DNA of 64,000 nt from Promethearchaeota archaeon. Its GTDB lineage: Archaea > Asgardarchaeota > Lokiarchaeia > Sigyniarchaeales > SOKP01. The position numbers and the translations under genes are program-made. The notes under the pieces were generated by a model. It was given only the letters and a program-made list of their open reading frames with translations. It had not been told where the DNA came from and did not search any database. The stretch lies in contig JBHLLU010000012.1 of assembly GCA_048938895.1 (NCBI GenBank), positions 27,576-91,575 on the forward strand, in the 5' to 3' direction. Numbering within the stretch: the first letter of the stretch is position 1; the number at the start of each line of letters is the position of its first letter. Positions 31,501 to 63,032 of this stretch are shown here, in pieces.

Positions 31501-33419
31501 GTTACAGTTAGATTGAACTGATACTGTATATTTGGAGTAAGAATTATTCGACGAGCAAAGACATGAATACCTAGTGGGTCTTCTGCAGAACTAGTTAAAT
31601 ATCCTTTTTCTATATTGAATCCCATATACTTTGTCAATGCATCAATAGCACCTTGTATATTTAGCTTTCCATATCCTTCATGAGAGTCTCTTAAGCCATT
31701 TATTGAAGGATTCCAAGATATGGAGGGGGAATAATCACTTTCATCGATAGTTTCTGTTAAGGGATCATCTTCTCTTTTTAAAGTAGTTTCAGACGCAGTC
31801 ATTAATAAAATAGATTTAATGATTTTCACCCATTCAGTTAAATTAAGATTGTTCCATTGGTTCCAATTACCCCATTTTGCCTCAATTAGTAAATTAATAG
31901 CTGCTGATACGATTGCTGAAGATATTGAGGTTCCATAACTAGTTGTTACACTATTAGTTTTTGAATCAGCAGAAATAATTGTACGTGAATTTAGTAATTT
32001 ACTGCCTCCCGGTGCTACAAGATCTGGTTTGAGAACATCACCTCCTTCTAACTTTCCCATGCTGCTATATGATGTTACTTGATCTTTATCATTAATTGCC
32101 CCTACAACTAATGCATTTTTATTTATAGCTAATCCATTTAGAGAGTTTGATCCTTTAATTCCATTATTTCCAGCAGCAATAACAACTAAAATTCCATTTC
32201 TTATGACTTCATCGATAACTCTATTAATGGTTACTACATCTCTTCCCAATGTACCTATACTTAAACAAGCGCTTATAATCTTATATGTTGCTCTATTTTG
32301 AATTATATTTGCTAATGCTGATATTAAATTTGATGTATATCCCATCCCAGATTGATTTAAAATTTTATATGCTACTATTTTAGTGGCATTAGCTATTCCT
32401 GTAAAATGTGCGAAATCTGGAGTATATGATTCTGGAAAATAGGAAACAGTAGCATTAAATGAAAAATTGGGGTTTAAATTTGAAGTATTTCTTAAATATT
32501 TAATATAAAGATCATAAATACCTGTTCCAAATTGGGCAACATTTTGATCTATATCATAATACTGATTAGGATTAATATTGTAAGAAGAATTAACTAATGT
32601 TCTGTTATAATATAATTCAAACCAAAATTTACTAATTCCATTGTTATTTAAATCCCAAATCGAACTGATATAAATATTCGAATCTAACTTACTCGCATTA
32701 AAAGAAAATATTTTAACTGAATAATTTGTTGAGACAATTCCATTTTCAAATAAACTTAAATGAGAATAATTTCCATGAAGATTTACTACCGTAGGATTAG
32801 TTGAATTATAAGGTTCTATGCCACTTCCAGTAATAACAGAAGAAATAAATGTACCATGACCATTATCATCTGAAACAGGATCACTATTTACAAAATTATG
32901 CCAACCAATTATCTTTCCATTTAAGAATTCTTGGCTAGAATTTACTCCAGTATCTAATACAGCTATTGAACCATTAGAAACGCCTTTATATCCATTTATA
33001 TTCCACGACGAGTTTACAGCTTTGACTTGTACGGTTGCATAGTTCATCTGGATTTCTATTTTTTCATCATCTTCAATTTTAGCATCAGGAAATTCCATTT
33101 TAAATAATGATCTATTTAATTCACTTTGCATTCTACCCGCAAAGCCACAAGTTGACTCAAAATCACCATTCCATTCATTTTTAATATATCCCCCATAATA
33201 TACAAATCTATCTTTTACATTACTATTGAATGAGGATTGGTTAAAAGAAACAATTATATCTTGGCTGACGCTATTTATTTGTAATTTTGTGATATTTTGA
33301 GTCGTTGATACATAGCTATCATCCTGCCAATTAATTCTATTAATCACTAATATATTAAAAAGGTTTGATATAGACAATAGTAAGAATAAAACTAATAGTT
33401 TTTTATTAAGTAATCTTAT
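28563..33419 (-). CDS. Large membrane-anchored S8 (subtilisin-like) serine peptidase with beta-sandwich domains and C-terminal Cys-rich Zn-ribbon tail
   Basis: VLDTG (Asp), DDNGHGT (His), AAGN (oxyanion Asn), GTSIS (Ser), KPDLVAPG. TM segment WGFLISLIIVVVIVSSLIFVF, then CKYC/CPKC/CQNC/CKKKSC. Start extended from TTG 33377 to ATA 33419, which restores a signal peptide. Confidence 0.88.
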   Translation of the reverse strand: MRLLNKKLLVLFLLLSISNLFNILVINRINWQDDSYVSTTQNITKLQINSVSQDIIVSFNQSSFNSNVKDRFVYYGGYIKNEWNGDFESTCGFAGRMQSELNRSLFKMEFPDAKIEDDEKIEIQMNYATVQVKAVNSSWNINGYKGVSNGSIAVLDTGVNSSQEFLNGKIIGWHNFVNSDPVSDDNGHGTFISSVITGSGIEPYNSTNPTVVNLHGNYSHLSLFENGIVSTNYSVKIFSFNASKLDSNIYISSIWDLNNNGISKFWFELYYNRTLVNSSYNINPNQYYDIDQNVAQFGTGIYDLYIKYLRNTSNLNPNFSFNATVSYFPESYTPDFAHFTGIANATKIVAYKILNQSGMGYTSNLISALANIIQNRATYKIISACLSIGTLGRDVVTINRVIDEVIRNGILVVIAAGNNGIKGSNSLNGLAINKNALVVGAINDKDQVTSYSSMGKLEGGDVLKPDLVAPGGSKLLNSRTIISADSKTNSVTTSYGTSISSAIVSAAINLLIEAKWGNWNQWNNLNLTEWVKIIKSILLMTASETTLKREDDPLTETIDESDYSPSISWNPSINGLRDSHEGYGKLNIQGAIDALTKYMGFNIEKGYLTSSAEDPLGIHVFARRIILTPNIQYQFNLTVTEDQEKTDFDLYLFSNKSNRFGEPILLQSSRKGRYRDFDTFYFIPKKNQTECIVIAKAINGTGTFSLNVSTVKNLYTPELKVPEINYIGGSKNTTIMSFQQFSGNNPNKNYSIDQYRFYIDYYDNDSSNVPPQEIYVSIMELSKNYTLAPIIQADIAYINNVLPQFADNNYTNGELYVSNYIQFPSTGTFHFFFVGSDGKHWIRFPETHFFNITIEFPTDSESFPYSHSFNDGLGNWSISGTGWDLLNQTNDNDNRSQVYENKWSSLYFGIFHNHPVNYTYQPINTVEDPYPNGTLISPLFNLTKLNKSTTQPFAKFGLRSSINSGDYIFLEINLNWTGWIILKIYTNQEREWFLEEINLTEYIGNFVQFRLEVDLDDNYDSINYKGFILDYFSISNYVNENSPLLIFNLTKDISSFQGSKYQNFKFTCFYYDLDNNYPNYLYLEMDNENYTMVNAFGDWTANSNTSTDKGITFKKSLIIGKISNHSFRFHFSDGKFQNKTQWYNKENSLFEFINVEPLQFNLNYSNKLIGRQFSNNSLKDYYIFGTPYPKDYTAWFKGDNTWHPIMRLNQEYIYGGIGLSYGSNRQGYGVDWDAELITHPLLLGSLYKVYLEFDYEISLQNEPENQRDKCIVSISDDFGYSWTVVKEYFNDNSGVLSGSEKLDISKYSDHVVMIKFTLQSNDYAPPSPNLGWGWLLTNIYVGYDKSTDFIAPEIQILNPKNNQLVDSVIWIRANITDNTELDSSKIYIYLKGKSVNRQKLNFNSSSGILEYKWDTTKYNDGIYEVKVIVFDKEGNRAEKLIMVEIDNGIIDWYKWGFLISLIIVVVIVSSLIFVFSEKSGKIWFEKRRDSRIEKARLKQIDKDQVIQRIELLEHKEELERPLILYCKYCHSWYFSEKFDIFCPKCEHDQIYSAYNCQNCGKWYYKDEPSENYYCKKKSCSGIRLIRREKEYIQELLAKKGKVLKKFEKKRKKFSILDN

Positions 33420-36400
33420 GATATATCACCCGATTCATCTTTTTTTTGTGTTAAATCTGACTTTGACTCATTAAGTCTGAAATTTTCCTTTTGATATTTA
33501 GAAATTTCTTTTAATCTCTCTTTTAGAGTGTGCTTCTGTTCTAAAATTGAGTCTCTAGAACTTAACTCGAAAATCTCTAACTCATTTCTTCGAAATATAT
33601 ACCTTTTTAACTTTTTTTTTTTAATCTGCCATATATAAATTCCGAAAATACCCAACGCAGATACAATCGGAATTAAAACATACATCAATTGCCTACTTCT
33701 TGGAATTATTATTTTGACCTTAACCTCATTAGAAAATTCTTCTGATTTGAGTAAAAAATAGTAGGAAATTAATGCTGGTTTTAAATTAATTATATTTTGC
33801 CTTTTAGCTTTAATAGTATAATTAAAAGAAGCCTTTTCTCCTGGTTCTAAACATTCTATTACATTTATTAATTTACCATCAGTTAATGTGAAATCTGAGG
33901 GAGAATAACTGACCATATCATTTACTTGAACTTCTTTTGTGGTTATGGTACCCGTATTTTCAATCTCAATGGTAACGCTAATTAAATCTCCAATTTCAAC
34001 TTCATTTCTGTTTATTGACTTTTTCAAGGAGAAATTAATATTCCCTAAAACCAAAAATGATGATTTGAAAATTTGTATAGTATTGCTTTCAGAACTCTTT
34101 AAAAAGTTAATAGGAGGATAGTAGTAACCTTTCCAATCAATTTTTTTAATGGTTATATTAAAGGAAATAGTATGATTAAATGAAAGATTATAAAAAAGTA
34201 GATTCTTTTCATCTATTCTTCTTAAATCTCCAAATTGATCTCTCATTTTTGTATTTAAATCTGGGATCAGCAAACCAACAGGTCCAAGGTTTACGATTTC
34301 AACTGTTAGATTAAATATGCTCCCTATAGGAGGAGCAAATTGTTTAGGATTAATGATTTTATAATTAATCCCTACTGTTCTTAAAAAAGGATATCTTTTA
34401 ACATAATCAATTGGAGAAGAGATACACACTTCATTCGTATTTGAATATAACTTAGAGGAATTTCCACCTTGAATATTTTTAGGATTATCATAAATTATTG
34501 AAACCATTTTTAAAGATCTTGTATTTGGAACATAAAATGAAAAGCTAATCTGAAAACTTTCATAGGGATTAAGATTAGGAAGATAGAAACTAAGATTGTT
34601 ATTATTAAGGGTAAAATTTATAGGGTCATCAATTATACCTGGTAATAAAAGTGAGATATTGATATTTTCAGCTTTATCTGAACCAATATTTGTGACATTA
34701 ATTGTATATGCAACTAAATCACCCTCTTTAGCACTATAATTAGAAAGATAAGAAACAGCTAATAATGAAGCCATACCATAGGTACTAAGAATTACTGAAT
34801 TTGATGATCTAAAATAATGGACTCTCCCAGATAAAGAACTAAATGAAATTCTAGCCCCCAATGCCTCATAGGGATTAATATCTCTTACATAAAATTTAAT
34901 ATCAAAATCATTAATAGAAATATTGAATTTATCTGTATCTATACCACTTAATTTGAATGCGACAATATGATTATTTGGAGCTGTAGGATCGAACAACCAT
35001 TCTAAGCTTTTATTATAACTAATAAATGAGAATGTATAAGAATTGTTTAATTGAGATGATATAAAGGGTATTGCATCTTGGAATTTTCCGATAGAGTAAT
35101 TGAAGATTTCAAAGTTGAGGTTATTTGAAGGATCTGTGAAATCAATTATTAAAGATACTCTCTCCAAACGGTATTCGGTTAAGTTGATTGAAGTATCATT
35201 TTGAAAAAGAAATTGAATTTCTATTTCTTCTTGATTAAGATAACGTTCTTCTGATTCAATAATCCAACTTCTGGAATCATTCTGCAGAGCAAATTCAGGC
35301 GTTGTACCCTTAGCGGAAATTCCAGAGATTAACGCGGGTAATTTTGGATTAGTCTCTTTAATTGTGAAATTATTAGAGTAAAAAGCTGTGAAGCTGTCAA
35401 TAACACTAATAGAGAAGTTGTTATAAATATATGTGAATTTTTCATTTGGTTCCAATTTCCAATTCTCACTATTCCAAATACTATCTTTATTTTTAAAATA
35501 CTCAATAAATGCATCATAAGAGATTATATCGTCTAAAAAATCATATCTCTTATACAATTCCTCAGCAACTTCATCCATCTCTTCATTATAAGGCCATAAA
35601 TTAGAGATATTTGTTACATCAGGAAAGAATCTATCATAAGTTCCTATTCCTAAAGAATCCAGATAAAAAATACGAGGATCCTCATCAAAATTAAAAAAAT
35701 CTTCTAATGAATCGTATTGATTGTGATACATTTCATCAACAACTTCCCAAATTGCATTTTGTATTAGATTTGCTCCTTGTTGATTACCTTGCGTGATTAT
35801 TAAAAAAAAGTTATTTAGTTCAAATGGTATAGGTGTTGGAACACCCCAAATTGAAATATTTCCTATATTTTCTACAGTTATATTAAAATCAAAATTTTGA
35901 TAAGCACCATAAGTAGCATTATTTCCAATAGGTGTTTTAGTTATTATTACATTACAATCTGAATTAGATGTGTTATATTGAACTGATAGATTTTCAATTG
36001 GATTTAAAATTCCTGTTGGAATAAAAGGAAAACCTTGAAAACCTAATTGTTGTAGATAATTAATAATATTATATTGATTGTTTAGATTTACTGGTTTAAT
36101 ATAACTTTGTTTTATTCCCTCCTTATTCTGCCAAAATAATTCAAAAGAGTATTCTTTAATAGTTTCCATGTCAAAATCAATTCCTGCTAAAAATAGAATC
36201 AACCCGATTTGTTCAAGAAGAAAATCATTAAATTGAAAATAATTAGGAGTCACATCGATAATATCTGTGCATAATATATTTATTTCAATATCGCTCATGA
36301 ACGCACCAATTAAAGCTATATATATTTTTTGGCTTGGTGCTAATGGAGCCCCAACATATCCCATTGCATTCCATAAATTAAATTCATATTGATTGGAAGC

Positions 36401-37378
36401 GACACTTTTTATACCATCTTTTAAACCCTCATATTGGATCATTAAACTAGTGTAATGAGATTTATTGGATAATGTAAAAGAGCTAATTATCTTAACAAAT
36501 TGATCCAATTCTACTTCCGAAATGGTTTCATTAAGTATATCTCCATAAATTTCTTCAAAGTTATCAATTTGTTGAGTTACATTTTCAGTTTGCAAATTCT
36601 CTAAAAATGATAGATCAAGAGATTCAAGATTGAAATTGACTTGATCTGTAGAAATGTTAAAATCACACTCTAGAAAATCTAAAGAATTAATAAACATTAT
36701 TGTAGAGGAAATATGATAATTCTGGATATATTCATCATTAGTAAGACGATTTTGATCCAAAGCTTTCCAATATCCATCCATTGGAAGATTTGTAGTAATT
36801 TCTTTAAAGTAAACTTCCCAATTAGGATAATGGCCTATAAATGGAAAGAAGTTTGGTTCTGTTACATTCAATAAAATTAAATCAATTTGAAATTTTCTTT
36901 TAATAATCTCAAGTGCTCTCTCAGCCTTTATTTTCGCATCATCTGAACTCATTTCTTTATCATAATAAAGAAAACCTGAAAAAGCATTGAAGCTGAATGA
37001 AAAATGATTAGTTATTTCACTTTCAGTTAGAATTCTCGGAAAAATTTCCGGAGGAATAGCATTGGATGCACTTATAAGTATATTACATTTATAAAATGCT
37101 GGATCATTTGTATCAAATTGAGAAAGAATAGAAGTATCATTTGTAAAGAGAGATTGCTTTATAATTGACTTATTTCCTGCAACATAAGCTTGAATCTGTT
37201 CTGCATAAAGATCTGTGCCAGCAATGTCAGCTAATCCCAGTGAACTATCTTTTTCTATAATTTCTTCTTTAAACATAAAATTATTGTTTCTTAGATTTTT
37301 ATATAATTTGAGATACAAAGGACCAACTAGAGATATTATAATAAGTATAATTGTGATGTATTTTTTTGTCCTATTCAT
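33416..37378 (-). CDS. Large secreted, C-terminally anchored surface protein with DUF11/CARDB-like Ig repeats
   Basis: N-terminal signal/TM. Repeats FNITVENIG, YTINVTNIG, LTVEIVNLG, VTIEIENTG. Many N-x-S/T sequons. C-terminal TM followed by KKKKLKR. Confidence 0.78.
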   Translation of the reverse strand: MNRTKKYITIILIIISLVGPLYLKLYKNLRNNNFMFKEEIIEKDSSLGLADIAGTDLYAEQIQAYVAGNKSIIKQSLFTNDTSILSQFDTNDPAFYKCNILISASNAIPPEIFPRILTESEITNHFSFSFNAFSGFLYYDKEMSSDDAKIKAERALEIIKRKFQIDLILLNVTEPNFFPFIGHYPNWEVYFKEITTNLPMDGYWKALDQNRLTNDEYIQNYHISSTIMFINSLDFLECDFNISTDQVNFNLESLDLSFLENLQTENVTQQIDNFEEIYGDILNETISEVELDQFVKIISSFTLSNKSHYTSLMIQYEGLKDGIKSVASNQYEFNLWNAMGYVGAPLAPSQKIYIALIGAFMSDIEINILCTDIIDVTPNYFQFNDFLLEQIGLILFLAGIDFDMETIKEYSFELFWQNKEGIKQSYIKPVNLNNQYNIINYLQQLGFQGFPFIPTGILNPIENLSVQYNTSNSDCNVIITKTPIGNNATYGAYQNFDFNITVENIGNISIWGVPTPIPFELNNFFLIITQGNQQGANLIQNAIWEVVDEMYHNQYDSLEDFFNFDEDPRIFYLDSLGIGTYDRFFPDVTNISNLWPYNEEMDEVAEELYKRYDFLDDIISYDAFIEYFKNKDSIWNSENWKLEPNEKFTYIYNNFSISVIDSFTAFYSNNFTIKETNPKLPALISGISAKGTTPEFALQNDSRSWIIESEERYLNQEEIEIQFLFQNDTSINLTEYRLERVSLIIDFTDPSNNLNFEIFNYSIGKFQDAIPFISSQLNNSYTFSFISYNKSLEWLFDPTAPNNHIVAFKLSGIDTDKFNISINDFDIKFYVRDINPYEALGARISFSSLSGRVHYFRSSNSVILSTYGMASLLAVSYLSNYSAKEGDLVAYTINVTNIGSDKAENINISLLLPGIIDDPINFTLNNNNLSFYLPNLNPYESFQISFSFYVPNTRSLKMVSIIYDNPKNIQGGNSSKLYSNTNEVCISSPIDYVKRYPFLRTVGINYKIINPKQFAPPIGSIFNLTVEIVNLGPVGLLIPDLNTKMRDQFGDLRRIDEKNLLFYNLSFNHTISFNITIKKIDWKGYYYPPINFLKSSESNTIQIFKSSFLVLGNINFSLKKSINRNEVEIGDLISVTIEIENTGTITTKEVQVNDMVSYSPSDFTLTDGKLINVIECLEPGEKASFNYTIKAKRQNIINLKPALISYYFLLKSEEFSNEVKVKIIIPRSRQLMYVLIPIVSALGIFGIYIWQIKKKKLKRYIFRRNELEIFELSSRDSILEQKHTLKERLKEISKYQKENFRLNESKSDLTQKKDESGDIS

Positions 37379-37391
37379 TGTTTACTTTTCC

Positions 37392-40391
37392 TCACATCGT
37401 TTCTCTATAAATCTCTACAATCCTCTTCTTTCGTGCTTTTCTTAAAAGTACTTTCATTCCAATTATAATCATAAATATTGAAAGAGAAAAAATCAGAATA
37501 ATGTTAAACCAAGGGACAAACAATACATATGGCATTCCCGTAAGTGTACTTAAGTTTGAGGTGACAATCCAAGCTGATAGCCAACCTACAATAATTCCTA
37601 TTATCCCACTACTTATCATAATTATTAATGATTCAATTATAAAAAGACGGTTTATATCTCTTCCCTTCAAACCTAATGTTCTCACTATTCCTATCTCCTT
37701 TTTCCTTTCAATAATTGTAGAATAAGATGATGATAACAAGCCGAAAATACATATAAATACTGTAGTCATTGCTATAAGTGAAAAAAGTGTATCTAATATA
37801 AAAAATGCAGATTGTTGTTGAGTAATTAGTTTTTCCAAGTTATATAAATTATAATTATAGTCTGTTCTATATAATTCATTAATAATATCCTCAATGGAAC
37901 GAGCTGAAGTAATTTTATCTTCTCTTATCTTGACAAAAATCCTATCAACATAAGGAACTAGGGGAATATCTAATATTCTTAGATAAGATTCTTGGGATAT
38001 TAAAACACCTCCCATATATGCTTGTGTACTAGTACCACTAAATTCAGTTGAAAATCCAGGCATGCTTTTTGCAATCCCTACAATTTTAAATGGGTATACT
38101 TCTAATTCATCTCCTCTGTAGATAACAATTCTAACTGAATCAGATATTTTTAAGTTCAAGTCGATTGCAATAGCTTCTGAGATAATACAAGTATAAAATT
38201 CTTCTAAATTAAACATATGATAAAATGCCTTATCCACACTCCCAGAAGTCATTTCGATATATTCTTTCTTTACTGTAAATAAATATTCCTCATCAATTCC
38301 AATTAGTGTAATTGCCTGGGTCGATAATCCTGTATAATCTCCAATCTCAGCTTTAAATTCTTTATCTGCTTCAGAATATATTTGAGTCAACTGGTACGGT
38401 TTTGCAATAACGGATGATACCTTTTCAATACCATCAATCGATAACAATTCTTCTTCAAAATTTATTGTCATTACCTTATTTATATTTATGGTAGTTTGCT
38501 GGATTTCAAGATTTGAATTTAATAATCTGTCTTCATTGATAGATACTGGAAAAAAAGGACCACCACCTAAACCTGCATTGTAAATCTCATCTGGTTCTTG
38601 CCAACCAGAAGTTTCAATCACAATATCTGATCCATAAGTTAATTCTGTCATCGCGGAAGATTGTGCTGAAAGAGTGTTAATTACTGTAGACGTAAAAATT
38701 ACGAATGAAAAAGAAAGTGCAAAAATCATTACCGTACTAGAATTTCTTCTTTGATATCGAAATACAAATATCTTTATTACATTATGTAATCGTTGTGCAA
38801 GCGGTCTAAATAGCGCTATAATTATTCTTAAGACAAGAGGAATTAATCCTAATCCTGCTAAAGTTAACCCAATATTAAAGATTAATAAAATTGCAATAAG
38901 TACACCGGCAAAAAGAGTTGAATCATTAGAAATTAAAATCCTAGGGATAACATAGAAAACAAATCCTCCATTAAATGCTAAAATAATTCCAACAAGTATG
39001 ATTTTATAGTTAACAGTAGTTTTTTTTTGAAGGTGATAAAGAGTATCTTCATGACGATAGGGATGGATAGATTCGATAAGTTGAAGTTTCATTACTTTCA
39101 AGGCAGGAGAAATGCTTACTATCATTCCAACACCTATACCCATGGCATAAGCTATTAAAATTGACCAAATACTAAAAGAAAATGTTAGTTCTGTAAAACC
39201 AATTGCAGCGTCAGTTATTACTCTATTTGCAAAAGGAATTATTATAAATCTAGATATAATGTTAGCAGTAATAATGCCAGAAATTGTCCCCAAATTACAT
39301 AAGAGGAATCCTTGCATTAATACAATCGCAAGGTTATATCTCTTATTAGCACCTAGTGTTCGAAATATCCCAAATTCTCTTATTCTTTCTTCTACTGAAG
39401 TTTTTAGAATCCCATTAATTAATACACCAGAAATAAGCATGGCAACAATAGATACAAATATAAACACAATAACGATCAAAATACTTACCATTTCAGCCCA
39501 ACCTAAAACTCTTAATTTGGGCAGATCTATAAAAAATTTTTCAATCCCAATCGCAAGTTGAATTTCGCCAGCAATATTCTTAACAGTAGATTTTGTTCCT
39601 TCTATGTCTCTTATATCATAAATATTTTCACTGTCTTTGAGAGTTAAAATTAATTGACTACAGGTTTTATTGAACTCTTCATATCCGAAATAGTGATATA
39701 ATGTCTCAATATCAACCACAATAAGATGTCTAGTACGGTATTCACTAGGCCATTTTAGATTGAAATCAAAAATAGCATCAACAGTAAGATTTTTAGTAAT
39801 TGTGTGTGTAACATTTCCATGCCTTAATCTCATTTTAATTTCGATAATATCATTTACCTTATACCTAATAATATTGTTAAAACCATAGTAGATCGCGCAA
39901 TGATTTAGAGGTAAACTATCCAGATCAAGAATCTCATTGCTTGAAGGATTGACCATTGACCCAAATTTAATACTTTTTTCATGAGTGAAATTAATTCCAG
40001 ACAAAACACTCCATTCTTCTTCCCCTGATAATTCTGTTGTATTAAATCCCTTTGAAATTTTTACTGTTGCAGATACATCCATTCGTGGAATAAAATTTTC
40101 AACTGTAGACGAAGTATTTTGAATTGTTTCTATGATCGGATCAAATTTAAAATAGGACGATCTATCTTCCGGTTCCCCTGTAAAATGCCTTACCGTTATT
40201 ACAGCATCCTGGTTTCCTGCTTCAATTGTAAGGTAATCTACGTAACTGGAAGAAATAGAATCATTTAAAAATAATACTACCGTTAACAAACCAATAGAAA
40301 TAAGCATTCCGATAATTGCTAATAATGTTCTGATTTTCTGCTTTTTAAGATCCAAAAAAGCATATTTTATAACTAATCTAAAATGGTTCAT
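37392..40391 (-). CDS. ABC transporter permease, duplicated MacB/FtsX type (permease A)
   Basis: SVEERIREFGIFRTLG and ERKKEIGIVRTLG motifs; two large extracytoplasmic domains; paralog of 25557..28529. Confidence 0.92.
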   Translation of the reverse strand: MNHFRLVIKYAFLDLKKQKIRTLLAIIGMLISIGLLTVVLFLNDSISSSYVDYLTIEAGNQDAVITVRHFTGEPEDRSSYFKFDPIIETIQNTSSTVENFIPRMDVSATVKISKGFNTTELSGEEEWSVLSGINFTHEKSIKFGSMVNPSSNEILDLDSLPLNHCAIYYGFNNIIRYKVNDIIEIKMRLRHGNVTHTITKNLTVDAIFDFNLKWPSEYRTRHLIVVDIETLYHYFGYEEFNKTCSQLILTLKDSENIYDIRDIEGTKSTVKNIAGEIQLAIGIEKFFIDLPKLRVLGWAEMVSILIVIVFIFVSIVAMLISGVLINGILKTSVEERIREFGIFRTLGANKRYNLAIVLMQGFLLCNLGTISGIITANIISRFIIIPFANRVITDAAIGFTELTFSFSIWSILIAYAMGIGVGMIVSISPALKVMKLQLIESIHPYRHEDTLYHLQKKTTVNYKIILVGIILAFNGGFVFYVIPRILISNDSTLFAGVLIAILLIFNIGLTLAGLGLIPLVLRIIIALFRPLAQRLHNVIKIFVFRYQRRNSSTVMIFALSFSFVIFTSTVINTLSAQSSAMTELTYGSDIVIETSGWQEPDEIYNAGLGGGPFFPVSINEDRLLNSNLEIQQTTININKVMTINFEEELLSIDGIEKVSSVIAKPYQLTQIYSEADKEFKAEIGDYTGLSTQAITLIGIDEEYLFTVKKEYIEMTSGSVDKAFYHMFNLEEFYTCIISEAIAIDLNLKISDSVRIVIYRGDELEVYPFKIVGIAKSMPGFSTEFSGTSTQAYMGGVLISQESYLRILDIPLVPYVDRIFVKIREDKITSARSIEDIINELYRTDYNYNLYNLEKLITQQQSAFFILDTLFSLIAMTTVFICIFGLLSSSYSTIIERKKEIGIVRTLGLKGRDINRLFIIESLIIMISSGIIGIIVGWLSAWIVTSNLSTLTGMPYVLFVPWFNIILIFSLSIFMIIIGMKVLLRKARKKRIVEIYRETM

Positions 40392-40440: not shown

Positions 40441-41619
40441 TCATTGTAAGCTTAACAATTCTCCATCTATTTTCATATTAAGATTATTATCTGTTATCAA
40501 TTCCTGTAAAATATCTTCAAAGCTTTCTGGTAAATTTATAAAAATGGAGCTTGGGATGAAATGTTTTATTTCATTTATTTTAATTTCCGTTTTTCCTTGA
40601 TTTGAGAACAGGTATTGAAAAATTTTACTTTTACACTTTTCTTTATTAATCTCATTCTCCTGCTTTCTTTTTAATTCCATAAGTTGAGTCTCTTTCAAGC
40701 CCGATATTTCTCCCTCTGTTGTTAGTTTCCCATCTCTCATATGAAGAACTTTATTTGCAAATTCAGATACCGCAGCATCATGACTTACGGCAACAAAAGT
40801 AGCTCCTCGTTTGTTTAAATCCTTCAGAAGATTCAAAATCATTATTCCTGTTTTACTATCAAGATCTCCTGTAACCTCATCAAGAATCACTACCCCAGGA
40901 TCATTTGCGAAGGCTCTTGCAATAGCAACTCTTTGTTGTTCACCACCACTCAATTCTGAAGGTGTGTGATGCGCTCTTTCATCCAATCCTACTAATCTTA
41001 AGAGATCCATTGCTCTTTTCCTCTTTCCTCGACGACTTAGGTTTCCTGAAAAATGAAGTGGCACCATAACATTCTCCATTGCAGTCATTTGGGGGAGTAA
41101 ATTATAAAATTGGAATACAAAACCTATACGTTCCCTACGGATCTCTGCTAAATCATTATCATTCAACATACTTATATTAGACCCTTCTAAAAAGATCTTT
41201 CCTCGCGTTGGGGTGTCAAGACCTCCAATCAAATTTAGTAAAGTCGTTTTTCCAGAACCAGAAGGCCCCATAATATCGACAAAGTCTCCATTATCTATTG
41301 TTAAATCTACACCTCTTAATGCTGCGACTGCAGTTGTTCCCAATAAATATGTCTTATGCAAATTTTCAACTACAATTAGATGTTCATAATCTTTACCCGG
41401 AACTTTATCTTCCTTAACTTCTTTCTTCATAGCTTTCTTTTCTATTCGAGACTGAGAAATAATGTCTGATTTTTCTTTTTTGATTTCTTCTTTTTTTTGT
41501 CGTTGTTTCCATTTTATAAATTGTTTTGAAACTTCACCTTTCCATATTGCTAATTTCCCAGTTTCTTCTTCATATCGTTCCATTAAAGGAGTTTTCTTAA
41601 TATTTGGTAATTGAGTCAT
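40441..41619 (-). CDS. ABC ATP-binding protein, LolD/MacB-type, with N- and C-terminal extensions
   Basis: GPSGSGKTT, GFVFQ.YNL, LSGGEQQRVAIARA, ILDEVTGDLD, VSHD; ~80-aa N-terminal and ~90-aa C-terminal extra regions. Confidence 0.95.
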   Translation of the reverse strand: MTQLPNIKKTPLMERYEEETGKLAIWKGEVSKQFIKWKQRQKKEEIKKEKSDIISQSRIEKKAMKKEVKEDKVPGKDYEHLIVVENLHKTYLLGTTAVAALRGVDLTIDNGDFVDIMGPSGSGKTTLLNLIGGLDTPTRGKIFLEGSNISMLNDNDLAEIRRERIGFVFQFYNLLPQMTAMENVMVPLHFSGNLSRRGKRKRAMDLLRLVGLDERAHHTPSELSGGEQQRVAIARAFANDPGVVILDEVTGDLDSKTGIMILNLLKDLNKRGATFVAVSHDAAVSEFANKVLHMRDGKLTTEGEISGLKETQLMELKRKQENEINKEKCKSKIFQYLFSNQGKTEIKINEIKHFIPSSIFINLPESFEDILQELITDNNLNMKIDGELLSLQ

Positions 41620-54080: not shown

Positions 54081-56636
54081 TTATTGGTTTGTAATAATAT
54101 CGGAAATTAATTTTGGAAAATCTCTCCATTGATTTAGGGTCAAAAGAACACCGTTCGCTTCATTTACCATTCTTTTTGCCATAACAGGGGAATAATTAAA
54201 TCTTGGAACAACCATAACAAATTTAACTCCTTTTTCACTTAGTTTCTTTAATTCTTTTAGACTATTATTATAATCATAAACATCAGCATCAGTAAATAGT
54301 ATGTTTAATTTATGCTTCGATCTAGCTTTCTTGGTAAATTGGTGATTTGCCCATTTAAGAGCAGAATTAATCCTAGTACCTCCTCTGGCGGTAATATCTA
54401 GAAGTTCATCGACTACTTTCTCCAATTCAATCTTTTCATCGAGATTTTTTACCTTATGAGTGTTAGATTCAAAAAATGTAAGAGCTAATTCTTCAGGTTT
54501 AAAAGCATATACTAGCATAGTTGCGCAAAGAGCCATTTGAGATAGTTTACTCCCTGTCATACTACCACTAATATCTAATTCTAGAACTAAACATCGTAGA
54601 CCTTGAGTAGTCTTTGAAACTAAAAAATCTTCATTTGAAATCAAATCTATATTTTTCCCTCCTACTAGTAAATTATCAATTGTCTCTTCTAAATCTATTA
54701 ATTCAAAATCATCACCTACCGTATAAGGAATTACGATATTTTCGACTATTGGACCTGAAGTTGCACTTCCCATAAGATTATTCGCAGATCGAATACCGAG
54801 ATCGATCATTATATGTTTAATAATCTCCTTTAACTTCTTTTTCACATTTGCTGAGATGTTATGTCGCGAAAAAAACCATTGCTCCAATAGATCTAAACCA
54901 TTTCCTGCGCCTAATGATGAAAATGCCTGATCTAGAGCTTTATGTCCCATTTTTTCAGCACAATTCAACACTTGGGTTAAATATTTTTCATTTAAAGCGC
55001 TGATTGCCTCCGTATTTGATGATTCTGGAGGAGAAACTCCCATCGCTATCTTTACTAGTTCATCAACTTGTTGAGGTGAAAGTTTTAATTTCTTTAAATA
55101 ATCTCTATACCCTTGATAAGTCCCTGTTCTTTCTTGTATCATTTTCTTGAGATATTTATAATTAACTTCAACTAAACTTAAGATCTCTTCCTCTGACATA
55201 TTTAATTTTTTTCCAGCACTTCTAATCGAATCTAGATTTGGGAGAAATCCTACTTCATTAAAATTCTTAACCAAAATTCTAAGATTTTCTTTGCTTGAAG
55301 CTGTTTCAGTTGTTTGGTTAACTATTTCTTGTACTTTGCTGTCTAATTGAGACTTACAAATAAGATCATTGCATTGTTCTCGCGAATTGATTAGATTATC
55401 AGTATAATTTTTCATCTGAGCATTTAAACAACCAGCATCATTATTTTCTTTTTTAATCCTTTGTACTTCATTATCGATCACTTTTGAGATTAACTTACGC
55501 CATTGTGGAATTTTTGTTGGGTGATTTATTAATTCTTTTCTTAAATCCTCCAGGTTATGGCAACCTAAATTTTCATTAATCTTTTCTAAATAGGTGTCAC
55601 ATATATCCCCGCCAAAGTATTGGTCATAATCTTTAGCACTTTGATAAGTATCACTGAAAGGTAGTTCAATACTATTTTTGACTAAATTACCAAGTTTTTC
55701 CTTCTCCAAATTTAGATTTGAACCCATGGTTTTTGATGCATTGAATAATTCATCTAAATTACTTTTTGAGCCTTCTAATGTCTGTTTTATGTGATTTTTC
55801 ATAATTTTATATCCATTGCCACTTAAAACTTTCCCTTTTAAAGCAAAATCTACCACATCTAGAGTTTCAAATAAATTTGTCTGAAACGTCTCTTCTAATA
55901 TTTTCTTGTCTATTTGTTTTTTTTTAGCTAATTGAGCTGTTAATTTCTCTCTCATGACACTCGATTTGGATATAATTTCTTCCAGCATCCCTAACTTTTG
56001 AGCAAATTTTATATCTTCTGGCTCTAGGTTGTTTATTTTCTTCCTCAAAAGGTTTTTTGCATGTTCTAGTAAAGATTTTAAATCAGTAAATCTATCAAAA
56101 TTAGTAATAGAATTTTTTTCAATAATATCTAGAGCAGTTTTATAAGGATCTTCTTCAAGTTCGTTTCTAAACCTTTCAAAAAAATCATTCAAGGAAGATT
56201 CTGAAATCAAATCAAAATTAAGGTCTCCTACCTCATCCAAATATTTTTTTAAAAATTCAAAATCATCATATATCTCATCTAAATCATCAAATTGTGTGCT
56301 AAGCTCATCTAATAAATCTTTAGCTTTACTATCATCAAAAATATTAGCCTCAGCTACTTTTCCTTGATTAATTAAATCAGATTGATCAGAATATGTTAAA
56401 AGTTCTTTAGCTATTCTACGCGCTAATTCTTGATTTTCTAGTGGTGAAGTTATTACTGCAATTTCTATAAAATCTTCTGTATCACATATCCCTCTATTTA
56501 AAAACCTCGATAATATCAATTTACATATTGCTATTGCCTGACGAATCGAAGGTTTATAAATGCATTTTTCATGATTTCTCATAGCTTTGATGAATTTAAG
56601 TGAAAACCAGATGGGGCTTTGTGGAAAAATAATCAT
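54081..56636 (-). CDS. vWA (MIDAS) domain protein, CoxE-like partner of MoxR ATPase
   Basis: IDLEETI, LDISGSM, GGTRI..AL, ILFTD at the C-terminus; long helical N-terminal region. Confidence 0.88.
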   Translation of the reverse strand: MIIFPQSPIWFSLKFIKAMRNHEKCIYKPSIRQAIAICKLILSRFLNRGICDTEDFIEIAVITSPLENQELARRIAKELLTYSDQSDLINQGKVAEANIFDDSKAKDLLDELSTQFDDLDEIYDDFEFLKKYLDEVGDLNFDLISESSLNDFFERFRNELEEDPYKTALDIIEKNSITNFDRFTDLKSLLEHAKNLLRKKINNLEPEDIKFAQKLGMLEEIISKSSVMREKLTAQLAKKKQIDKKILEETFQTNLFETLDVVDFALKGKVLSGNGYKIMKNHIKQTLEGSKSNLDELFNASKTMGSNLNLEKEKLGNLVKNSIELPFSDTYQSAKDYDQYFGGDICDTYLEKINENLGCHNLEDLRKELINHPTKIPQWRKLISKVIDNEVQRIKKENNDAGCLNAQMKNYTDNLINSREQCNDLICKSQLDSKVQEIVNQTTETASSKENLRILVKNFNEVGFLPNLDSIRSAGKKLNMSEEEILSLVEVNYKYLKKMIQERTGTYQGYRDYLKKLKLSPQQVDELVKIAMGVSPPESSNTEAISALNEKYLTQVLNCAEKMGHKALDQAFSSLGAGNGLDLLEQWFFSRHNISANVKKKLKEIIKHIMIDLGIRSANNLMGSATSGPIVENIVIPYTVGDDFELIDLEETIDNLLVGGKNIDLISNEDFLVSKTTQGLRCLVLELDISGSMTGSKLSQMALCATMLVYAFKPEELALTFFESNTHKVKNLDEKIELEKVVDELLDITARGGTRINSALKWANHQFTKKARSKHKLNILFTDADVYDYNNSLKELKKLSEKGVKFVMVVPRFNYSPVMAKRMVNEANGVLLTLNQWRDFPKLISDIITNQ

Positions 56637-56659
56637 TAAGATATCATCCCATTAATTTA

Positions 56660-57796
56660 TTATACTGTACCAACTACTTGAGAAATAATATTATTTATTA
56701 CATCATTGGTTTTTACACCCGGTTTCGTTTGAATTGCACCAAATAATACATTTCTCGCGATCTCCTTAAGTACTCTGCTAGGATCTTTCTTAGTCTTTTT
56801 TTGAGCAACACCAGTAAGACGTGCGAGAGCTATACCACTTCTTAAACTTGCAGGAATTTGAATCTGATGATGAGTCCGTGTTCGATTAATAATTAGATAT
56901 ACTTTTTCCAATGTACTTTCATCAATTTTATAGTAGGGATTGTTATGCTTGATAATTTTCATCTCAGTTTTTTTATCAGGGTAATCAAGTTCAATCCATA
57001 CATTAAATCGATCCTTTAAAGCTTCACCTAATCGATGAGTACCAACTAATTCTGAAGGATTCATTGCCCCAATAAAGAAAAATCCTGATGAGGATTTTAT
57101 TCTCCCAATATGAGGTATAGATAATGTTTTTTCTTCTAAAGGTTCAAGTAAGGAGTTTTGGGTGTATTCAGTTGCACGGTTTATTTCATTCGCTAGAAAA
57201 ACACCTCCGTTTAACATTGCTTTAACAATTGGGCCGGGATTAAAAGCTTCAAAAGAAAATCCTTTCTGTATTGTGGTAGCTGGATTAAAAGAGCCTATTA
57301 GATGTGCTGGTTTTGTAGATTCATCAAATGTAATCCATTCAAAAGAGTCATTTCCTGTGATTTCTGCTCTAGATTGGGCATAAAATCTACAAATAGTAGT
57401 TTTTCCAATACCAGGTGGGCCAACTAAAATAGGATAAAGATTAGAAGCATCTGCTTCATAAATCAAATCCAATGCTTCCTTGTATTGACCACTTAAAACA
57501 ATCTCCATCTTTTCTTCTTTTTGTGAAATTAAGCTTTTTTCAAATAATTCTTTAAGAGTACTTTTTGCACGATTTGAATTAAATTTAGTCTCATGCTTCA
57601 AATAGGGTGAATTCTTAAGAATTGTGAGATTATCTAATTCCTTTCCTGTAGCATTCTTGGGTACAGGGGTGACCTTCTTTTTTTCATGAGTTTTAGATGG
57701 GCTAGATATTGTAGATGTGTTAGTAGATTTAGTAGTTTCTGGTTTACTTTGAGGTTTAGATGTAGTGGTTTTTTTAGTTACAGGTTTTTTTGCCAT
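56660..57796 (-). CDS. MoxR-family AAA+ ATPase
   Basis: GPPGIGKT, GP...AM..G, FLANEINR, QNSLL..LEE, AMNP, L.EAL.DRF, SLR (sensor 2). Confidence 0.92.
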   Translation of the reverse strand: MAKKPVTKKTTTSKPQSKPETTKSTNTSTISSPSKTHEKKKVTPVPKNATGKELDNLTILKNSPYLKHETKFNSNRAKSTLKELFEKSLISQKEEKMEIVLSGQYKEALDLIYEADASNLYPILVGPPGIGKTTICRFYAQSRAEITGNDSFEWITFDESTKPAHLIGSFNPATTIQKGFSFEAFNPGPIVKAMLNGGVFLANEINRATEYTQNSLLEPLEEKTLSIPHIGRIKSSSGFFFIGAMNPSELVGTHRLGEALKDRFNVWIELDYPDKKTEMKIIKHNNPYYKIDESTLEKVYLIINRTRTHHQIQIPASLRSGIALARLTGVAQKKTKKDPSRVLKEIARNVLFGAIQTKPGVKTNDVINNIISQVVGTV

Positions 57797-57912: not shown

Positions 57913-58983
57913 CTAGGTTAAACAGATAAAAAATCCACAATGTTTACAATTTCCATTGGAATCCAGATTTAATTTTGAAATTCCATAATTGTTTCTTTCA
58001 ATTATTAGTTTAGAGCATTTGGGGCATATTGTATTAGTATATTCAGAATTAAGAACATTTCCAAGGTAAACATACATCAATCCCTCATTTTTAGCCACTT
58101 TATAAGCATCTATTAGATAGTGTAATGGAGTAGGTTCAGAAAATCCGTAATCTGTCGATTTAAAGTGGGGATAAAACCTAGAAAAATGTACAGGGGTGTC
58201 CTCTCCTAAATCCTTACAGATTCTTTTTGAAATCTCTTTAATAAATGTTTTATTAGTATTTAATTCAGGAATTAGTAATGTTGTAATTTCGACATGAACA
58301 CCTAAATCTTTTGCCAGTGAAGCATTCCTCCACACAAATTCTCCATCAATACCGCAATACTTTCTTACCATTTCGTTATCTCCTTTGATATCAATATTGA
58401 TTGCATCCAGACCGGCATCTACTAAATCTTTCAAAACACTTTCAGTCATGTATCCATTCGATACGTAAGTATTATACAAACCATGTCCCTTTGCTAATTT
58501 AAACACCTCTAATGAATATTCAAATAATAAAGTAGGTTCATTAAATGAAATTGATGTACCTTGACAACCCTCTTTTAATGCTAAACTTATAAAATGTCCA
58601 GGGGAAATATATTTTTCATAAGAGGACATAATATCTAATATATGCTTGTCCGGATGGGACATATGATGATTTTGACACCAGAAACAATCGAAATTACATC
58701 CAAAACTTCCAATAGTGAGTGCTCTTGTTCCTGGATAGAAGTGATATAAAGGCTTTTTTTCAATAGGATTATTTGATATTCCTGCGTTACAACCAAAAAC
58801 AATAGTATAAATAGTTCCTTCATGATTTAATCTAGTTTGACAATGACCTAACGACTTTAAAGAAATCTTGCATTTTCTTTCGCATGTTAAGCATTGAGTT
58901 ATATCAGTACCAATTTTCTTTTGGAACTTTACCTGTTTTACATATTTAGAATTAACTAAATTAACTTTTGTAGTCTTATTCAC
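57913..58983 (-). CDS. amrS: AmmeMemoRadiSam system radical SAM enzyme
   Basis: C..C...C.......G.C.TR, PIEKKPLYHFYPG, GCNFDCFWCQN, NEPT, NIDIK, HFSRFYP, Y.GNV, terminal Cys pairs. Confidence 0.93.
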   Translation of the reverse strand: MNKTTKVNLVNSKYVKQVKFQKKIGTDITQCLTCERKCKISLKSLGHCQTRLNHEGTIYTIVFGCNAGISNNPIEKKPLYHFYPGTRALTIGSFGCNFDCFWCQNHHMSHPDKHILDIMSSYEKYISPGHFISLALKEGCQGTSISFNEPTLLFEYSLEVFKLAKGHGLYNTYVSNGYMTESVLKDLVDAGLDAINIDIKGDNEMVRKYCGIDGEFVWRNASLAKDLGVHVEITTLLIPELNTNKTFIKEISKRICKDLGEDTPVHFSRFYPHFKSTDYGFSEPTPLHYLIDAYKVAKNEGLMYVYLGNVLNSEYTNTICPKCSKLIIERNNYGISKLNLDSNGNCKHCGFFICLT

Positions 58984-59552
58984 CTAGATTTGTGTATATC
59001 TTTGGTAACTCTTCCATCTGTTATAATACCGTAATCACAAAAAGTATTACTTAATGTTCTATTATAAAGCTTGTCTAACTTACCTAATATCTTTGAGAAA
59101 AATAAATTAATTACACCCCCATGAGAAACGATTAATAATTTTTTATTACTAAATTTCGAATCTATCGCTTCAATCTTTTGGGAAAATCTTACTAAAGCAC
59201 TATTAGCTGTTTCCCAATTATTGAATGATTGAGCCCTGTTTGTTAGGCACTTTCTCATAGTTCCAATATATTCTTCCTGTTCAAGAAATTTTCCATTATC
59301 TCTATTTATTTCATTTAACATTTCGTCTCTTTGAATTCTTTTACCTAACTTATTCGCTAAGGGCAATACTGTCTTATATGCTTTTTCTTCTTGTGAGGAT
59401 ATAATTATATCAACATCTTGAAAAAACTTGAGGTTGGAAATTTTTAAAGCATCTTTTTGTCCTTTCATAGATAAAACCCATTTTGAAATTATTTGGGCTC
59501 TATCAACATGAGTCTCAGCATGCCTTAGGAAAATGAGTATATTTTTAGGCAT
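58980..59552 (-). CDS. Histidine phosphatase (PGM-like) family protein
   Basis: LRHAET, SS...KA..T, L.E, VSHGG. Confidence 0.9.
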   Translation of the reverse strand: MPKNILIFLRHAETHVDRAQIISKWVLSMKGQKDALKISNLKFFQDVDIIISSQEEKAYKTVLPLANKLGKRIQRDEMLNEINRDNGKFLEQEEYIGTMRKCLTNRAQSFNNWETANSALVRFSQKIEAIDSKFSNKKLLIVSHGGVINLFFSKILGKLDKLYNRTLSNTFCDYGIITDGRVTKDIHKSR

Positions 59553-61772: not shown

Positions 61773-63032
61773 TTAATTAATAATTGGATATTTACTTTTC
61801 ATGAAATCCATTAATTTTTGGTTCTCCTTTTGGTACAACCATCTAATATAACTTAAAGTTACTTTACCGTTATGTAAGTAATTTTTCCCTGTATTCTTTG
61901 AATATATTTTATGTAATTGTAATTTTCTAGTTAGTAAGATATATTCTCTCAAAATTTTTCTATTATACTGCCAAAACCATTCAAAAAACTTCCACATCAT
62001 ACTCCCATTTTTTCTAAAAACACTAGTTTTACCATAAAATTGAATATATTTATCAACATGTTTTTTCATTAGGGAAATTATCTTCTGTTCTTCAGCTTCA
62101 GTAAAATCTATGTCAATTTCTGTGGAGATATTTGTTGTTTTTTCAGGTCTTAGTAGCTTATTTAATTTTTCTTCAAACATTTTCCCATCCAAAATCATGG
62201 CTATACTTTTCTTTTCTTCTTGGTTTTCACCTAATTTATTAATAATTATGTTTTCAATATTATGTCGTATAAATCTGGGAGACATACTTGAAATAACTAT
62301 ACAGAAATTCACGACTAAGCGAGTAGAGAATATTTTAGTAATTGAAAAATCTTTTAAAGCCTGCTTCCTTATTTGTCTGGCAACATCAACAACAATTTCC
62401 GCTATCTTTTTATCGCAACCAGAGATTCTTGTAGCAATTTCAACTTCTTTTTGTTTAATTGGATAATCTATCTCAGGACTAACAATAAAACGGTCTTCAA
62501 AAGCTTCTTGGAGCTTGTTTATACCAATAACACCTTTATTTAAAGTCCCAATGATAACAAGCTTACTTTTTGCATTAAGCTCATATCTTTCAAAACCCTT
62601 TGAAATCAGGTTAATATGATTTTCAGAAAGTAGTGAATTTAATGAAATTTGCTCACTTTCTCTTATAGCATTAACTTCATTTATAATAATAAAGGAAATC
62701 CCTTTTCTATTGGCGTCTTCAATAGCTCTTGTTAGAGGTCCGTGATTAAATTGTGTTTCTCCGTTAAGAATCTCCCAATAACCTTCAATATCTCTTCGAT
62801 CAAGATCTGGAGAACCATCAATTATATAATAATGAGCTTTAAAAAAATTCGCAAGTGTAATCGCTAATAAAGTCTTCCCTGTACCAGGAGGACCATGTAG
62901 AAGAATCCCCATACAAGTTCCTCTGTTGAGCGATTTAATCAAGTTTTTTAAATAATCAAATTCATCATATTGTTGAATATAACTAATCCTTTTTACATTT
63001 TGTGCATCTAACATTTTAGATACTTTATCCAA
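61773..63032 (-). CDS. MoxR/CbbQ/CobS-like AAA+ ATPase with C-terminal extension
   Basis: GPPGTGKT, GPL..A, IIINEVN, GTLN, L.EAF.DRF, FSTR; about 120 extra C-terminal residues. Confidence 0.92.
   Translation of the reverse strand: MDKVSKMLDAQNVKRISYIQQYDEFDYLKNLIKSLNRGTCMGILLHGPPGTGKTLLAITLANFFKAHYYIIDGSPDLDRRDIEGYWEILNGETQFNHGPLTRAIEDANRKGISFIIINEVNAIRESEQISLNSLLSENHINLISKGFERYELNAKSKLVIIGTLNKGVIGINKLQEAFEDRFIVSPEIDYPIKQKEVEIATRISGCDKKIAEIVVDVARQIRKQALKDFSITKIFSTRLVVNFCIVISSMSPRFIRHNIENIIINKLGENQEEKKSIAMILDGKMFEEKLNKLLRPEKTTNISTEIDIDFTEAEEQKIISLMKKHVDKYIQFYGKTSVFRKNGSMMWKFFEWFWQYNRKILREYILLTRKLQLHKIYSKNTGKNYLHNGKVTLSYIRWLYQKENQKLMDFMKSKYPIIN

Follow-up and report, generated by a model that had tools for sequence, protein, structure and literature searches.

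A segment shared by two ATPases

The window analysed here, the whole 64,000-nucleotide stretch at positions 27,576 to 91,575 of contig JBHLLU010000012.1 (assembly GCA_048938895.1, a Promethearchaeota archaeon of the class Lokiarchaeia), encodes two ATPases of different families which share a short segment near one end of each protein (which we refer to as the module). The first is a MacB/LolD-type ABC ATPase of 392 amino acids (aa) at 40441-41619 (-), with the Pfam family ABC_tran at residues 101-250 (E = 1e-34, 120.5 bits against a cut-off of 25) and LolD/MacB/FtsE-like NCBIfam matches that each fall under the equivalog cut-off. Its module core, residues 12-37 at 41509-41586 (-), is a member of the ten-copy hidden Markov model (HMM) family described below. 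The second is a 419-aa MoxR-type ATPase at 61773-63032 (-), annotated in the database as 413 aa from a later Met, with AAA_5 at residues 43-182 (1.7e-21, 77.1 bits, cut-off 22) and CbbQ_C at 196-279 (9e-6, 26.2 bits, cut-off 20.6), and its module copy lies at residues 373-398 (61839-61916 (-)). In both proteins the segment is outside the Pfam domains of the ATPase, in line with the remark of an earlier note, made from the sequence alone, that neither family normally carries it, and the Pfam rows that overlap the ABC segment are sub-threshold, namely Glyco_hydro_123_N_2 (16.8 bits, cut-off 27) and SMC_N, which spans the ABC domain.

The earlier note had aligned the two segments without gaps, and we reproduced this alignment at the same positions of both open reading frames (ORFs), with nine identities (L, Y, T, G, K, G, V, I, W) and the conservative pairs I/L, S/T, F/Y and K/R. 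When the whole ABC and MoxR proteins were compared by BLASTP the module segment was top-ranked (E = 8e-4, 17 of 51 residues identical), and a second, weaker pairing joined the ABC segment with MoxR residues 326-352. The source genome (4.65 Mb in 174 contigs, 31% GC) was searched as 29,895 stop-to-stop six-frame ORFs. Written as a strict regular expression, the earlier consensus occurs in two places only, both of them the window copies, and a looser expression adds three more, the upstream MoxR stretch and two in other proteins. An HMM seeded with four copies converged after two rounds on ten proteins with one copy each, at domain E-values of 3e-17 to 6e-11 (8e-16 for the MoxR copy), the next ORF standing at 0.5. 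A leave-out profile, made only from the eight copies that lie elsewhere in the genome, placed the ABC copy (E = 7e-11) and the MoxR copy (E = 3.2e-4), the most divergent of the genome's ten, at ranks 9 and 10, with the next-best ORF at 0.18. The conserved unit is small, as had been proposed, and exceeds the 26 residues first described: the HMM envelope covers about 32-37 residues, corresponding to ABC residues 8-44 (41488-41598 (-)), where AlphaFold2 predicts a helix, a bridge and the start of a helix at 32-57, and to 61818-61928 (-) in the MoxR gene.

A resemblance of this length might arise by chance or composition between Lys/Glu-rich tails in an AT-rich genome, without common origin, and the 31% GC of the genome and the Lys/Glu-rich flanks of both segments fit such an explanation. 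However, the match is not a chance one, because the leave-out profile recovers both copies with a clear gap to the noise. The 291 unique copies collected here share the consensus T-x-L-M-K-x-[YF]-E-x-E-T-G-K-x-A-I-W-R-G-x-[IV]-T-[KE]-x-[FY]-K-K-W-x-K, in which the last Trp is practically invariant (98%) and Thr, Gly, Lys, Ala, Trp, Gly and Thr are nearly so (Thr, Lys, Ala, Trp and Thr at 91-94%), and the module is conserved among orthologues and present throughout the order. Chance similarity is refuted by the HMM family, the leave-out profile, the conservation of the copies and a class-wide survey.

The earlier note had called the module unnamed, and indeed no described domain was matched with significance in Pfam, NCBIfam, PDB sequence or fold searches. 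The ten isolated modules gave no Pfam family at E ≤ 10 and a single, chance-level NCBIfam row (0.11); the best hit of a PDB sequence profile search had an E-value of 1.5. With a predicted 58-residue model as query, Foldseek returned nothing from the PDB at E ≤ 0.001 (best 8.5) and VIA-align none of 48,161 chains at Z ≥ 5 (best Z 4.2), whilst the best ESM Atlas score was 0.77, to unnamed clusters. Ten of the 50 best VIA-align rows listed are winged-helix proteins of LysR/ModE type at Z 3.2-3.6, within the stated noise of the tool; the LysR-type rows have a root-mean-square deviation of 3.5-4.8 across 54-56 residues and none was found by Foldseek. These fold searches, run on a model, establish the module neither as a new fold nor as a known one. 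A description of the module was not found in the literature, where supplements such as Table S3 of PMC5847659 and the asCOG tables (10.1101/2020.10.19.343400) might list it. It could instead be a divergent form of a described small domain that HMMs miss, such as SHOCT, the wing of a winged helix, a helix-hairpin-helix (HhH) or a zinc-less beta-beta-alpha finger. Domains this short easily escape detection, SHOCT is likewise short and terminal, and the weak LysR-type rows would fit, but isolated modules gave nothing above chance level in Pfam and NCBIfam, the module regions of whole hosts gave only sub-threshold rows, the PDB, Foldseek and VIA-align searches were null, and in one protein (P0073) SHOCT and the module are distinct. 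We consider this explanation improbable.

Our main reading, to which we assign a probability of about 0.9, is that the module is a real, lineage-specific, shuffled domain without a described family. Judged from sequence, the two window segments each represent a copy of the same autonomous mini-domain, about 32-37 residues long, with the core consensus [LM]-x2-[YF]-E-x-E-T-G-K-x-A-[IV]-W-[RK]-G-x-[IV]-T-x2-[FY]-K-K-W. The feature is wider than the earlier note described, being a shuffled mini-domain for which no described family was found.

Hosts, distribution and history of the module

The ten hosts in this genome are functionally diverse. The module is N-terminal in the ABC ATPase and in four paralogous proteins with HisKA and Response_reg (REC) domains, and C-terminal in the MoxR-type ATPase, in RNA polymerase subunit A' (Rpb1 domains 1-5), where it follows a Lys-rich spacer, in an LRR protein, in an IFT52-GIFT/ABC_transp_aux-like protein and in a multi-pass membrane protein with no Pfam family. 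The membrane protein, read by eye, has a basic N-terminus and about four membrane-spanning segments, and its tail would therefore lie inside the cell. The four HisKA-REC paralogues (L001 3942-6197, L002 4659-5537 and L003 4666-5565) have no HATPase domain; two are adjacent on contig C97, and such pairs are adjacent in many relatives. In one of the C97 genes (L001 3942-5009) a run of N is flanked on either side by repeats of the same ~20 residues, which looks like a scaffolding artefact and leaves the true C-terminal part of the gene uncertain. Galperin and colleagues singled out these regulators as a Lokiarchaeum-specific architecture, noted without the module for Lokiarchaeum GC14_75, and described an Arc-type ribbon-helix-helix domain in them (PMC5847659); the passages of that paper on these proteins do not mention the N-terminal module. 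In all four regulators the module ends a few residues before the segment so described. A PDB comparison of this segment from one regulator gave a single CopG/Arc/MetJ row (E = 0.92), so the ribbon-helix-helix domain is taken here from the paper.

Module position was read in 265 proteins drawn from the cluster-representative and word-indexed searches described below; because regulators abound in the second of these lists, the counts carry a bias. The module is N-terminal (first 60 residues) in 161, C-terminal (last 25) in 48 and at both ends in six, so that by these limits 215 of the 265 have it at one or both termini; 15 are internal, mostly tandem arrays, and 35 proteins are too short to judge. 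One copy is present in 234 proteins and two to seven in the other 31. Pfam matches were surveyed in the 75 of 150 listed representatives that are at least 180 aa long. HisKA and/or REC domains occur in 19, one of them fused to an Arf GTPase, followed by Ras/Arf/Roc GTPases (4), LRR (4), Rpb1 fragments (3), ABC ATPases (2) and zinc ribbons (2), with single cases of L13e, a NosD beta-helix, a BBS7-type propeller, NUMOD3, SWIM, DUF948 and a weak DNMK, whilst 35 have no family at all. The earlier proposal that the module is an accessory of nucleoside triphosphatases (NTPases) does not fit this census, since HisKA-REC regulators carry it most often and RNA polymerase A' is the host conserved most widely. 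Among the metagenomic proteins, the 870-aa P0099 joins an N-terminal module to a Cap4-type nuclease, LRRs and a reverse transcriptase, an architecture that looks like a defence system. Another set (P0001-P0003 and P0013-P0017) has a conserved N-terminal domain of ~150 aa with no Pfam match, followed by two to seven modules of alternating A and B form with Lys-rich spacers between them; no homologue of the P0001-P0003 N-terminal domain was found in this genome. Such tandem arrays of up to seven units look like scaffolds.

The distribution was surveyed with the ten-copy profile. The module is present in 40 of 41 close relatives and in 78 of 301 genomes drawn across the phylum, including 68/68 of family f1 and 7/7 of f2; outside the order the draw gave two marginal matches (E = 5.5e-4 and 9.5e-4), both in one other genus, and the remaining families none. 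Across the whole class 154 of 161 genomes match (f1 134/134, f2 14/14, f4 4/4 and f3 0/1, the last genome being 66% complete), of which one is among the seven genomes of other orders (G329, E = 1.4e-12). Each genome has 2-24 matches in f1 and 1-6 in f2 and f4. A set of 1.84 billion cluster representatives yielded 501 matches at E ≤ 1e-3, of which 61 reach ≤ 1e-10, and a word-indexed protein search gave 557 hits among 7,993 scored candidates, all from metagenomes or Asgard-labelled metagenome-assembled genomes. The product names of these 557 are response regulator, hypothetical protein, ABC transporter ATP-binding protein or RNA polymerase subunit A', and none names the module. Viral contigs gave 43 pattern matches and no confirmed copy. 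The family is homologous and essentially confined to one order of Lokiarchaeia-class Asgard archaea, which bears out the lineage-specific character proposed earlier; an HMM search of the kind suggested in the earlier note yielded ten copies in this genome, the two in the window included, and matches in 154 of 161 genomes of the class.

Modules usually sit behind a highly charged, low-complexity tether on apparently cytoplasmic, functionally unrelated proteins. In the 37 proteins compared, charged residues make up 43% of the 40 positions before a C-terminal module and 28% of the remaining sequence. The ABC ATPase has such a Lys/Glu-rich tether at residues 38-80 (41380-41508 (-)), joining the module to the ABC domain, predicted to form one long helix as far as residue 57 and less conserved in orthologues than any other stretch. 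In seven orthologues of this ATPase the module is 77-100% identical, the tether 47-74% and the ATPase domain 88-95%, and in each host lineage the module is more strongly conserved than the tether. Copies on different hosts within one genome share 27-46% identity. Because copies on different hosts have diverged this far while those of the ABC orthologues remain so similar, the shuffling must be old rather than a sign of recent mobility. The earlier description of a mobile module appended to different NTPases therefore stands as regards attachment to different proteins, with at least ten hosts here and many more in metagenomes, but not as regards recent movement.

The history of individual hosts differs. 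An ABC match covering the module was found in 28 of 61 genomes of the order, in genera g1, g14, g15, g17 and g18, whereas the best ABC matches in genus g13 and families f2-f4 start only at residues 55-79, in shorter frames. The probable counterparts there have no module, which would therefore appear to have joined the ABC ATPase within family f1. The same ATPase carries a C-terminal extension of ~90 aa (residues about 301-392, 40441-40717), 55-76% identical in orthologues, whose sole Pfam row is a sub-threshold Ins_P5_2-kin (E = 0.011). Directly downstream lies a 999-aa FtsX/MacB-type permease at 37392-40391 (-) (FtsX 5e-30; MacB_PCD 1.6e-8, yet with no single stretch passing alone), followed on the same strand by a 1320-aa protein (33416-37378) with TRAP_beta/DUF11 matches and weaker CARDB-type rows, which may be a substrate or partner of the ABC-FtsX transporter.

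In the MoxR-type ATPase the module lies within a C-terminal domain (residues 312-414, 61791-62099 (-); AlphaFold2 confidence, pLDDT, 87-96 over 311-419) that has no Pfam family above cut-off. Among 49 orthologues L393 and W398 of the module are invariant and Y377, T381, T392, Y395 and I396 are conserved in at least 90%. The domain also holds a probable degenerate upstream copy at residues 326-352 (61977-62057 (-)), picked up by the medium-stringency regular expression and the weak BLASTP segment and lying under the HMM threshold; here W347 is invariant and Y329, W352 and W354 reach at least 90% in the same orthologues, and a helix, a bridge (339/345) and a helix are predicted. Two units in one confidently modelled domain imply that modules can be neighbours. 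All 161 close MoxR homologues carry Asgard or metagenome labels, near-identical copies recurring among metagenomes, and the C-terminal domain is patchy, being present in nine of the order's 61 sampled genomes but not detected in any of the 11 other species drawn from the same genus. Downstream of the MoxR gene is a VWA (CoxE-like) protein at 59600-61540 (-) (VWA_CoxE 2.3e-5, 24.4 bits, cut-off 26.4), the usual pairing for MoxR genes. A second pair of AAA_5 ATPase and VWA protein lies just beyond it (54081-57796), with radical-SAM and histidine-phosphatase-family proteins between the two pairs (57913-59552).

RNA polymerase A' is the most consistent host. With the last 199 residues of A' as query, a match running through the module was obtained in 41 of 42 family f1 genomes, this one counted, the match being contiguous in 39 and, in two, divided inside a single frame; G174 did not match the query at all. 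Alignments of A' from f2-f4 end before the tail; two f2 genomes read directly have a K/T-rich spacer with one module in one and three modules in the other. In an f1 genome of another genus the tail consists of a (KKAPV)n spacer and one module. The form of the A' tail in the order is a low-complexity Lys-rich spacer followed by one to three modules (L008-L010, from G038, G032 and G183; L006 7291-7887). The literature searched made no mention of this tail. In the present assembly the A' gene is split (L006 4848-5131, contig C159 about 8847-9130), a 91-aa ORF forming its N-terminus and a 919-aa main frame, in another reading frame, matching Rpb1 domain 1 only from profile position 94 onwards; relatives have a single frame of ~974-1007 aa, and the split is either a frameshift or an assembly error.

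Predicted shape and candidate activity

The earlier note had proposed a helix-hairpin-helix shape, and the models agree in predicting a helix, a short beta-bridge hairpin and a second helix for both window copies. For ABC residues 1-58 (72-row alignment, mean pLDDT 79, 87-90 across residues 11-40) AlphaFold2 places helices at 11-20 and 32-57 and a beta-bridge at 25-26/29-30. The full MoxR model (49 orthologues, pLDDT 84) has helices at 373-381 and 393-402 and a hairpin at 386-391, so that residues 373-402 repeat the secondary-structure pattern of the ABC copy and 312-356 form a looser version; the two models were compared through their secondary-structure strings only. A classical HhH DNA-binding motif does not describe this arrangement, as no HhH Pfam family was matched and the connector, of ~11 residues, would contain a beta-bridge instead of the tight Gly-hydrophobic-Gly loop that links the two helices of HhH. 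Helix 1 is acidic whilst the hairpin and helix 2 are basic, the mean net charge being +3, with Lys/Arg commonest at profile positions 13, 18, 20, 23, 26, 27, 29, 30 and 33 (38% to 96% of copies). In the tandem arrays the B form, which alternates with the A form, has Tyr in place of the Trp residues. The two are homologous, because a B-type profile retrieves the A-type copies of this genome (best E 6e-5). The same profile found no further copies here, and at the threshold set for listing it missed the MoxR copy, although the latter looks like the B form when inspected by eye.

For the role of the module the earlier note had suggested a docking, localisation or ligand-binding tag. We tentatively suggest, at somewhat less than even odds, that the module acts in protein docking, to a hub or to other modules, and would be a tethered docking tag on different machines. 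Tyr/Phe, Ala, Ile, Trp, Phe and Trp would form a small core, whilst a conserved polar surface (Glu-x-Glu on helix 1 and Lys/Arg on the hairpin and helix 2) could bind a common partner, which might be another module or a hub protein. RNA polymerase A', HisKA-REC regulators, the ABC ATPase, MoxR, small GTPases, LRR proteins and eL13 would in this way be recruited to one partner or place; on ABC and MoxR the module would set where or with what the ATPase works, not how ATP is hydrolysed. Docking is our preferred reading because the hosts are so varied, the arrays look like scaffolds, the surface is dipolar and the MoxR model packs two units into a single domain. A prediction of a two-copy complex of ABC residues 6-46 scored 0.12 against a mark of 0.42, which speaks neither for nor against pairing.

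Several points weigh against this picture. No partner of the module was identified, and it is from the features just listed that we infer docking. The structural likeness of the ABC and MoxR copies is one between predicted models, compared by secondary-structure pattern alone. A few of the matching proteins bear NCBI labels of Thor-, Hermod- or Hodarchaeota, which disagrees with the restriction to one order seen in the genome draws. In addition, the many nucleic-acid-related hosts and the strongly basic helix 2 fit DNA or RNA binding at least as well as docking, and the GTPases, the ABC ATPase and the membrane-protein tails would also fit binding to anionic membranes.

If the module were a small, non-specific DNA/RNA-binding domain, its basic hairpin and helix 2 would contact the backbone and the Lys-rich tethers would add affinity, so that RNA polymerase, regulators, eL13 and nucleases would hold DNA or RNA more firmly. 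This fits the Lys/Arg-rich positions and the net charge, tethers such as (KKAPV)n and K/T-rich runs, the near-constant RNA polymerase A' host (41 of 42 f1 genomes and the two inspected genomes of the second family) and the hosts with L13e, zinc ribbons, NUMOD3, SWIM or a reverse transcriptase with a Cap4 nuclease. It would also suit the regulators, where the module adjoins the segment described as an Arc-type ribbon-helix-helix (PMC5847659), and the LysR/ModE-type rows among the best VIA-align rows, at Z of only 3.2-3.6. However, it is hard to see why the ABC ATPase, MoxR, the Ras/Arf GTPases or the LRR, beta-propeller, GIFT and membrane proteins should require nucleic acid, helix 1 is acidic, the fold matches are in the noise range and the ribbon-helix-helix segment gave only the E-value of 0.92 in the PDB check. 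We regard nucleic-acid binding as somewhat unlikely, although closer to docking in probability than the membrane alternative.

According to the latter the module would be a peripheral membrane tag, whose aromatic residues and ring of Lys/Arg sit on anionic archaeal lipids and replace the lipid anchors absent from Asgard GTPases. Two conserved Trp and a Phe/Tyr flanked by Lys/Arg would suit this role, as would the Ras/Arf GTPases with polybasic spacers, the ABC ATPase with its FtsX permease and the C-terminal tails of membrane proteins. The prenylated C-terminal extension is reported as absent from Asgard Rab-like GTPases (PMC10933270), which agrees with the idea. The most conserved hosts are, however, RNA polymerase A', eL13 and soluble regulators, and the aromatic residues are probably buried in the core, because the 32-residue fold has hardly any hydrophobic residues besides them. 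A membrane tag therefore seems to us very unlikely.

Small interaction modules that are shuffled between proteins typify eukaryotic proteomes but are seldom seen in archaea. In the present lineage, near the origin of eukaryotes, one mini-domain is carried by anything from several to two dozen proteins in each genome. Extending the docking proposal, a rather unlikely but far-reaching possibility is a proteome-wide 'address tag' system in one Asgard order, in which folded 32-residue modules on charged tethers bind a common hub or each other. RNA polymerase (through its CTD-like A' tail), eL13, DNA-binding two-component regulators and the Ras/Arf, ABC and MoxR proteins would then be interlinked, tagged regulators could directly recruit tagged polymerase, and the tandem-module proteins would be scaffolds, a prokaryotic counterpart of eukaryotic modular interaction-domain networks. 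The ligand of the module would reveal how transcription, signalling GTPases and transport ATPases are spatially organised, and a 35-residue unit offers a clean pull-down handle for the few cultured Asgard strains. For annotation, several hundred 'hypothetical' protein clusters gain a domain model, and the unaligned ends of otherwise ordinary ABC, MoxR and RpoA' proteins are explained.

Comparison with known domains and systems

SHOCT is a short terminal domain found in diverse architectures, with a G-x-I-T-x-x-E-[FY] core. It is the closest analogue of the module in kind, the likeness being one of lifestyle rather than of family: SHOCT (PF09851), of ~28 aa and unknown function, also occurs singly or repeated at the termini of many unrelated prokaryotic proteins. 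However, its HMM matched none of the ten modules or ten hosts, and in P0073 the SHOCT (residues 32-56) is separate from the module (269-303). The module is also longer, has a predicted beta-hairpin with a conserved Trp and belongs to one archaeal order. The WW domain was considered and rejected, as its two Trp residues stand 20-22 apart in a three-stranded sheet, whilst the module has its conserved Trp at profile positions 17 and 28, only 11 apart, and a predicted structure made up largely of helix; Pfam WW was not matched. Winged-helix proteins of LysR/ModE type share the order of helix, beta-hairpin and long helix, but the module is without the first helices of that fold and no helix-turn-helix family of Pfam was matched.

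As small terminal units tethered by linkers to many cargoes, modules may be likened to dockerins, to the encapsulation peptides of bacterial microcompartments and to the docking domains of polyketide synthases; the tandem arrays are scaffold-like, and the DEBS docking-domain entry 1pzr is among the weak VIA-align rows (Z 3.4). The comparison is by analogy only, as no cognate receptor, sequence relation or Ca-binding repeats were found, and the hosts are core information-processing and signalling proteins rather than members of one metabolic pathway. Similarly, the A' tail recalls the C-terminal domain (CTD) of Rpb1 in RNA polymerase II, both being low-complexity tails of the largest subunit with a possible function as tether or landing pad. 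In the present case, however, the tail ends A', at the split point in Rpb1 domain 5, and not A'', it has no heptad repeats and it closes with a folded module, so that the two would be analogous rather than homologous.

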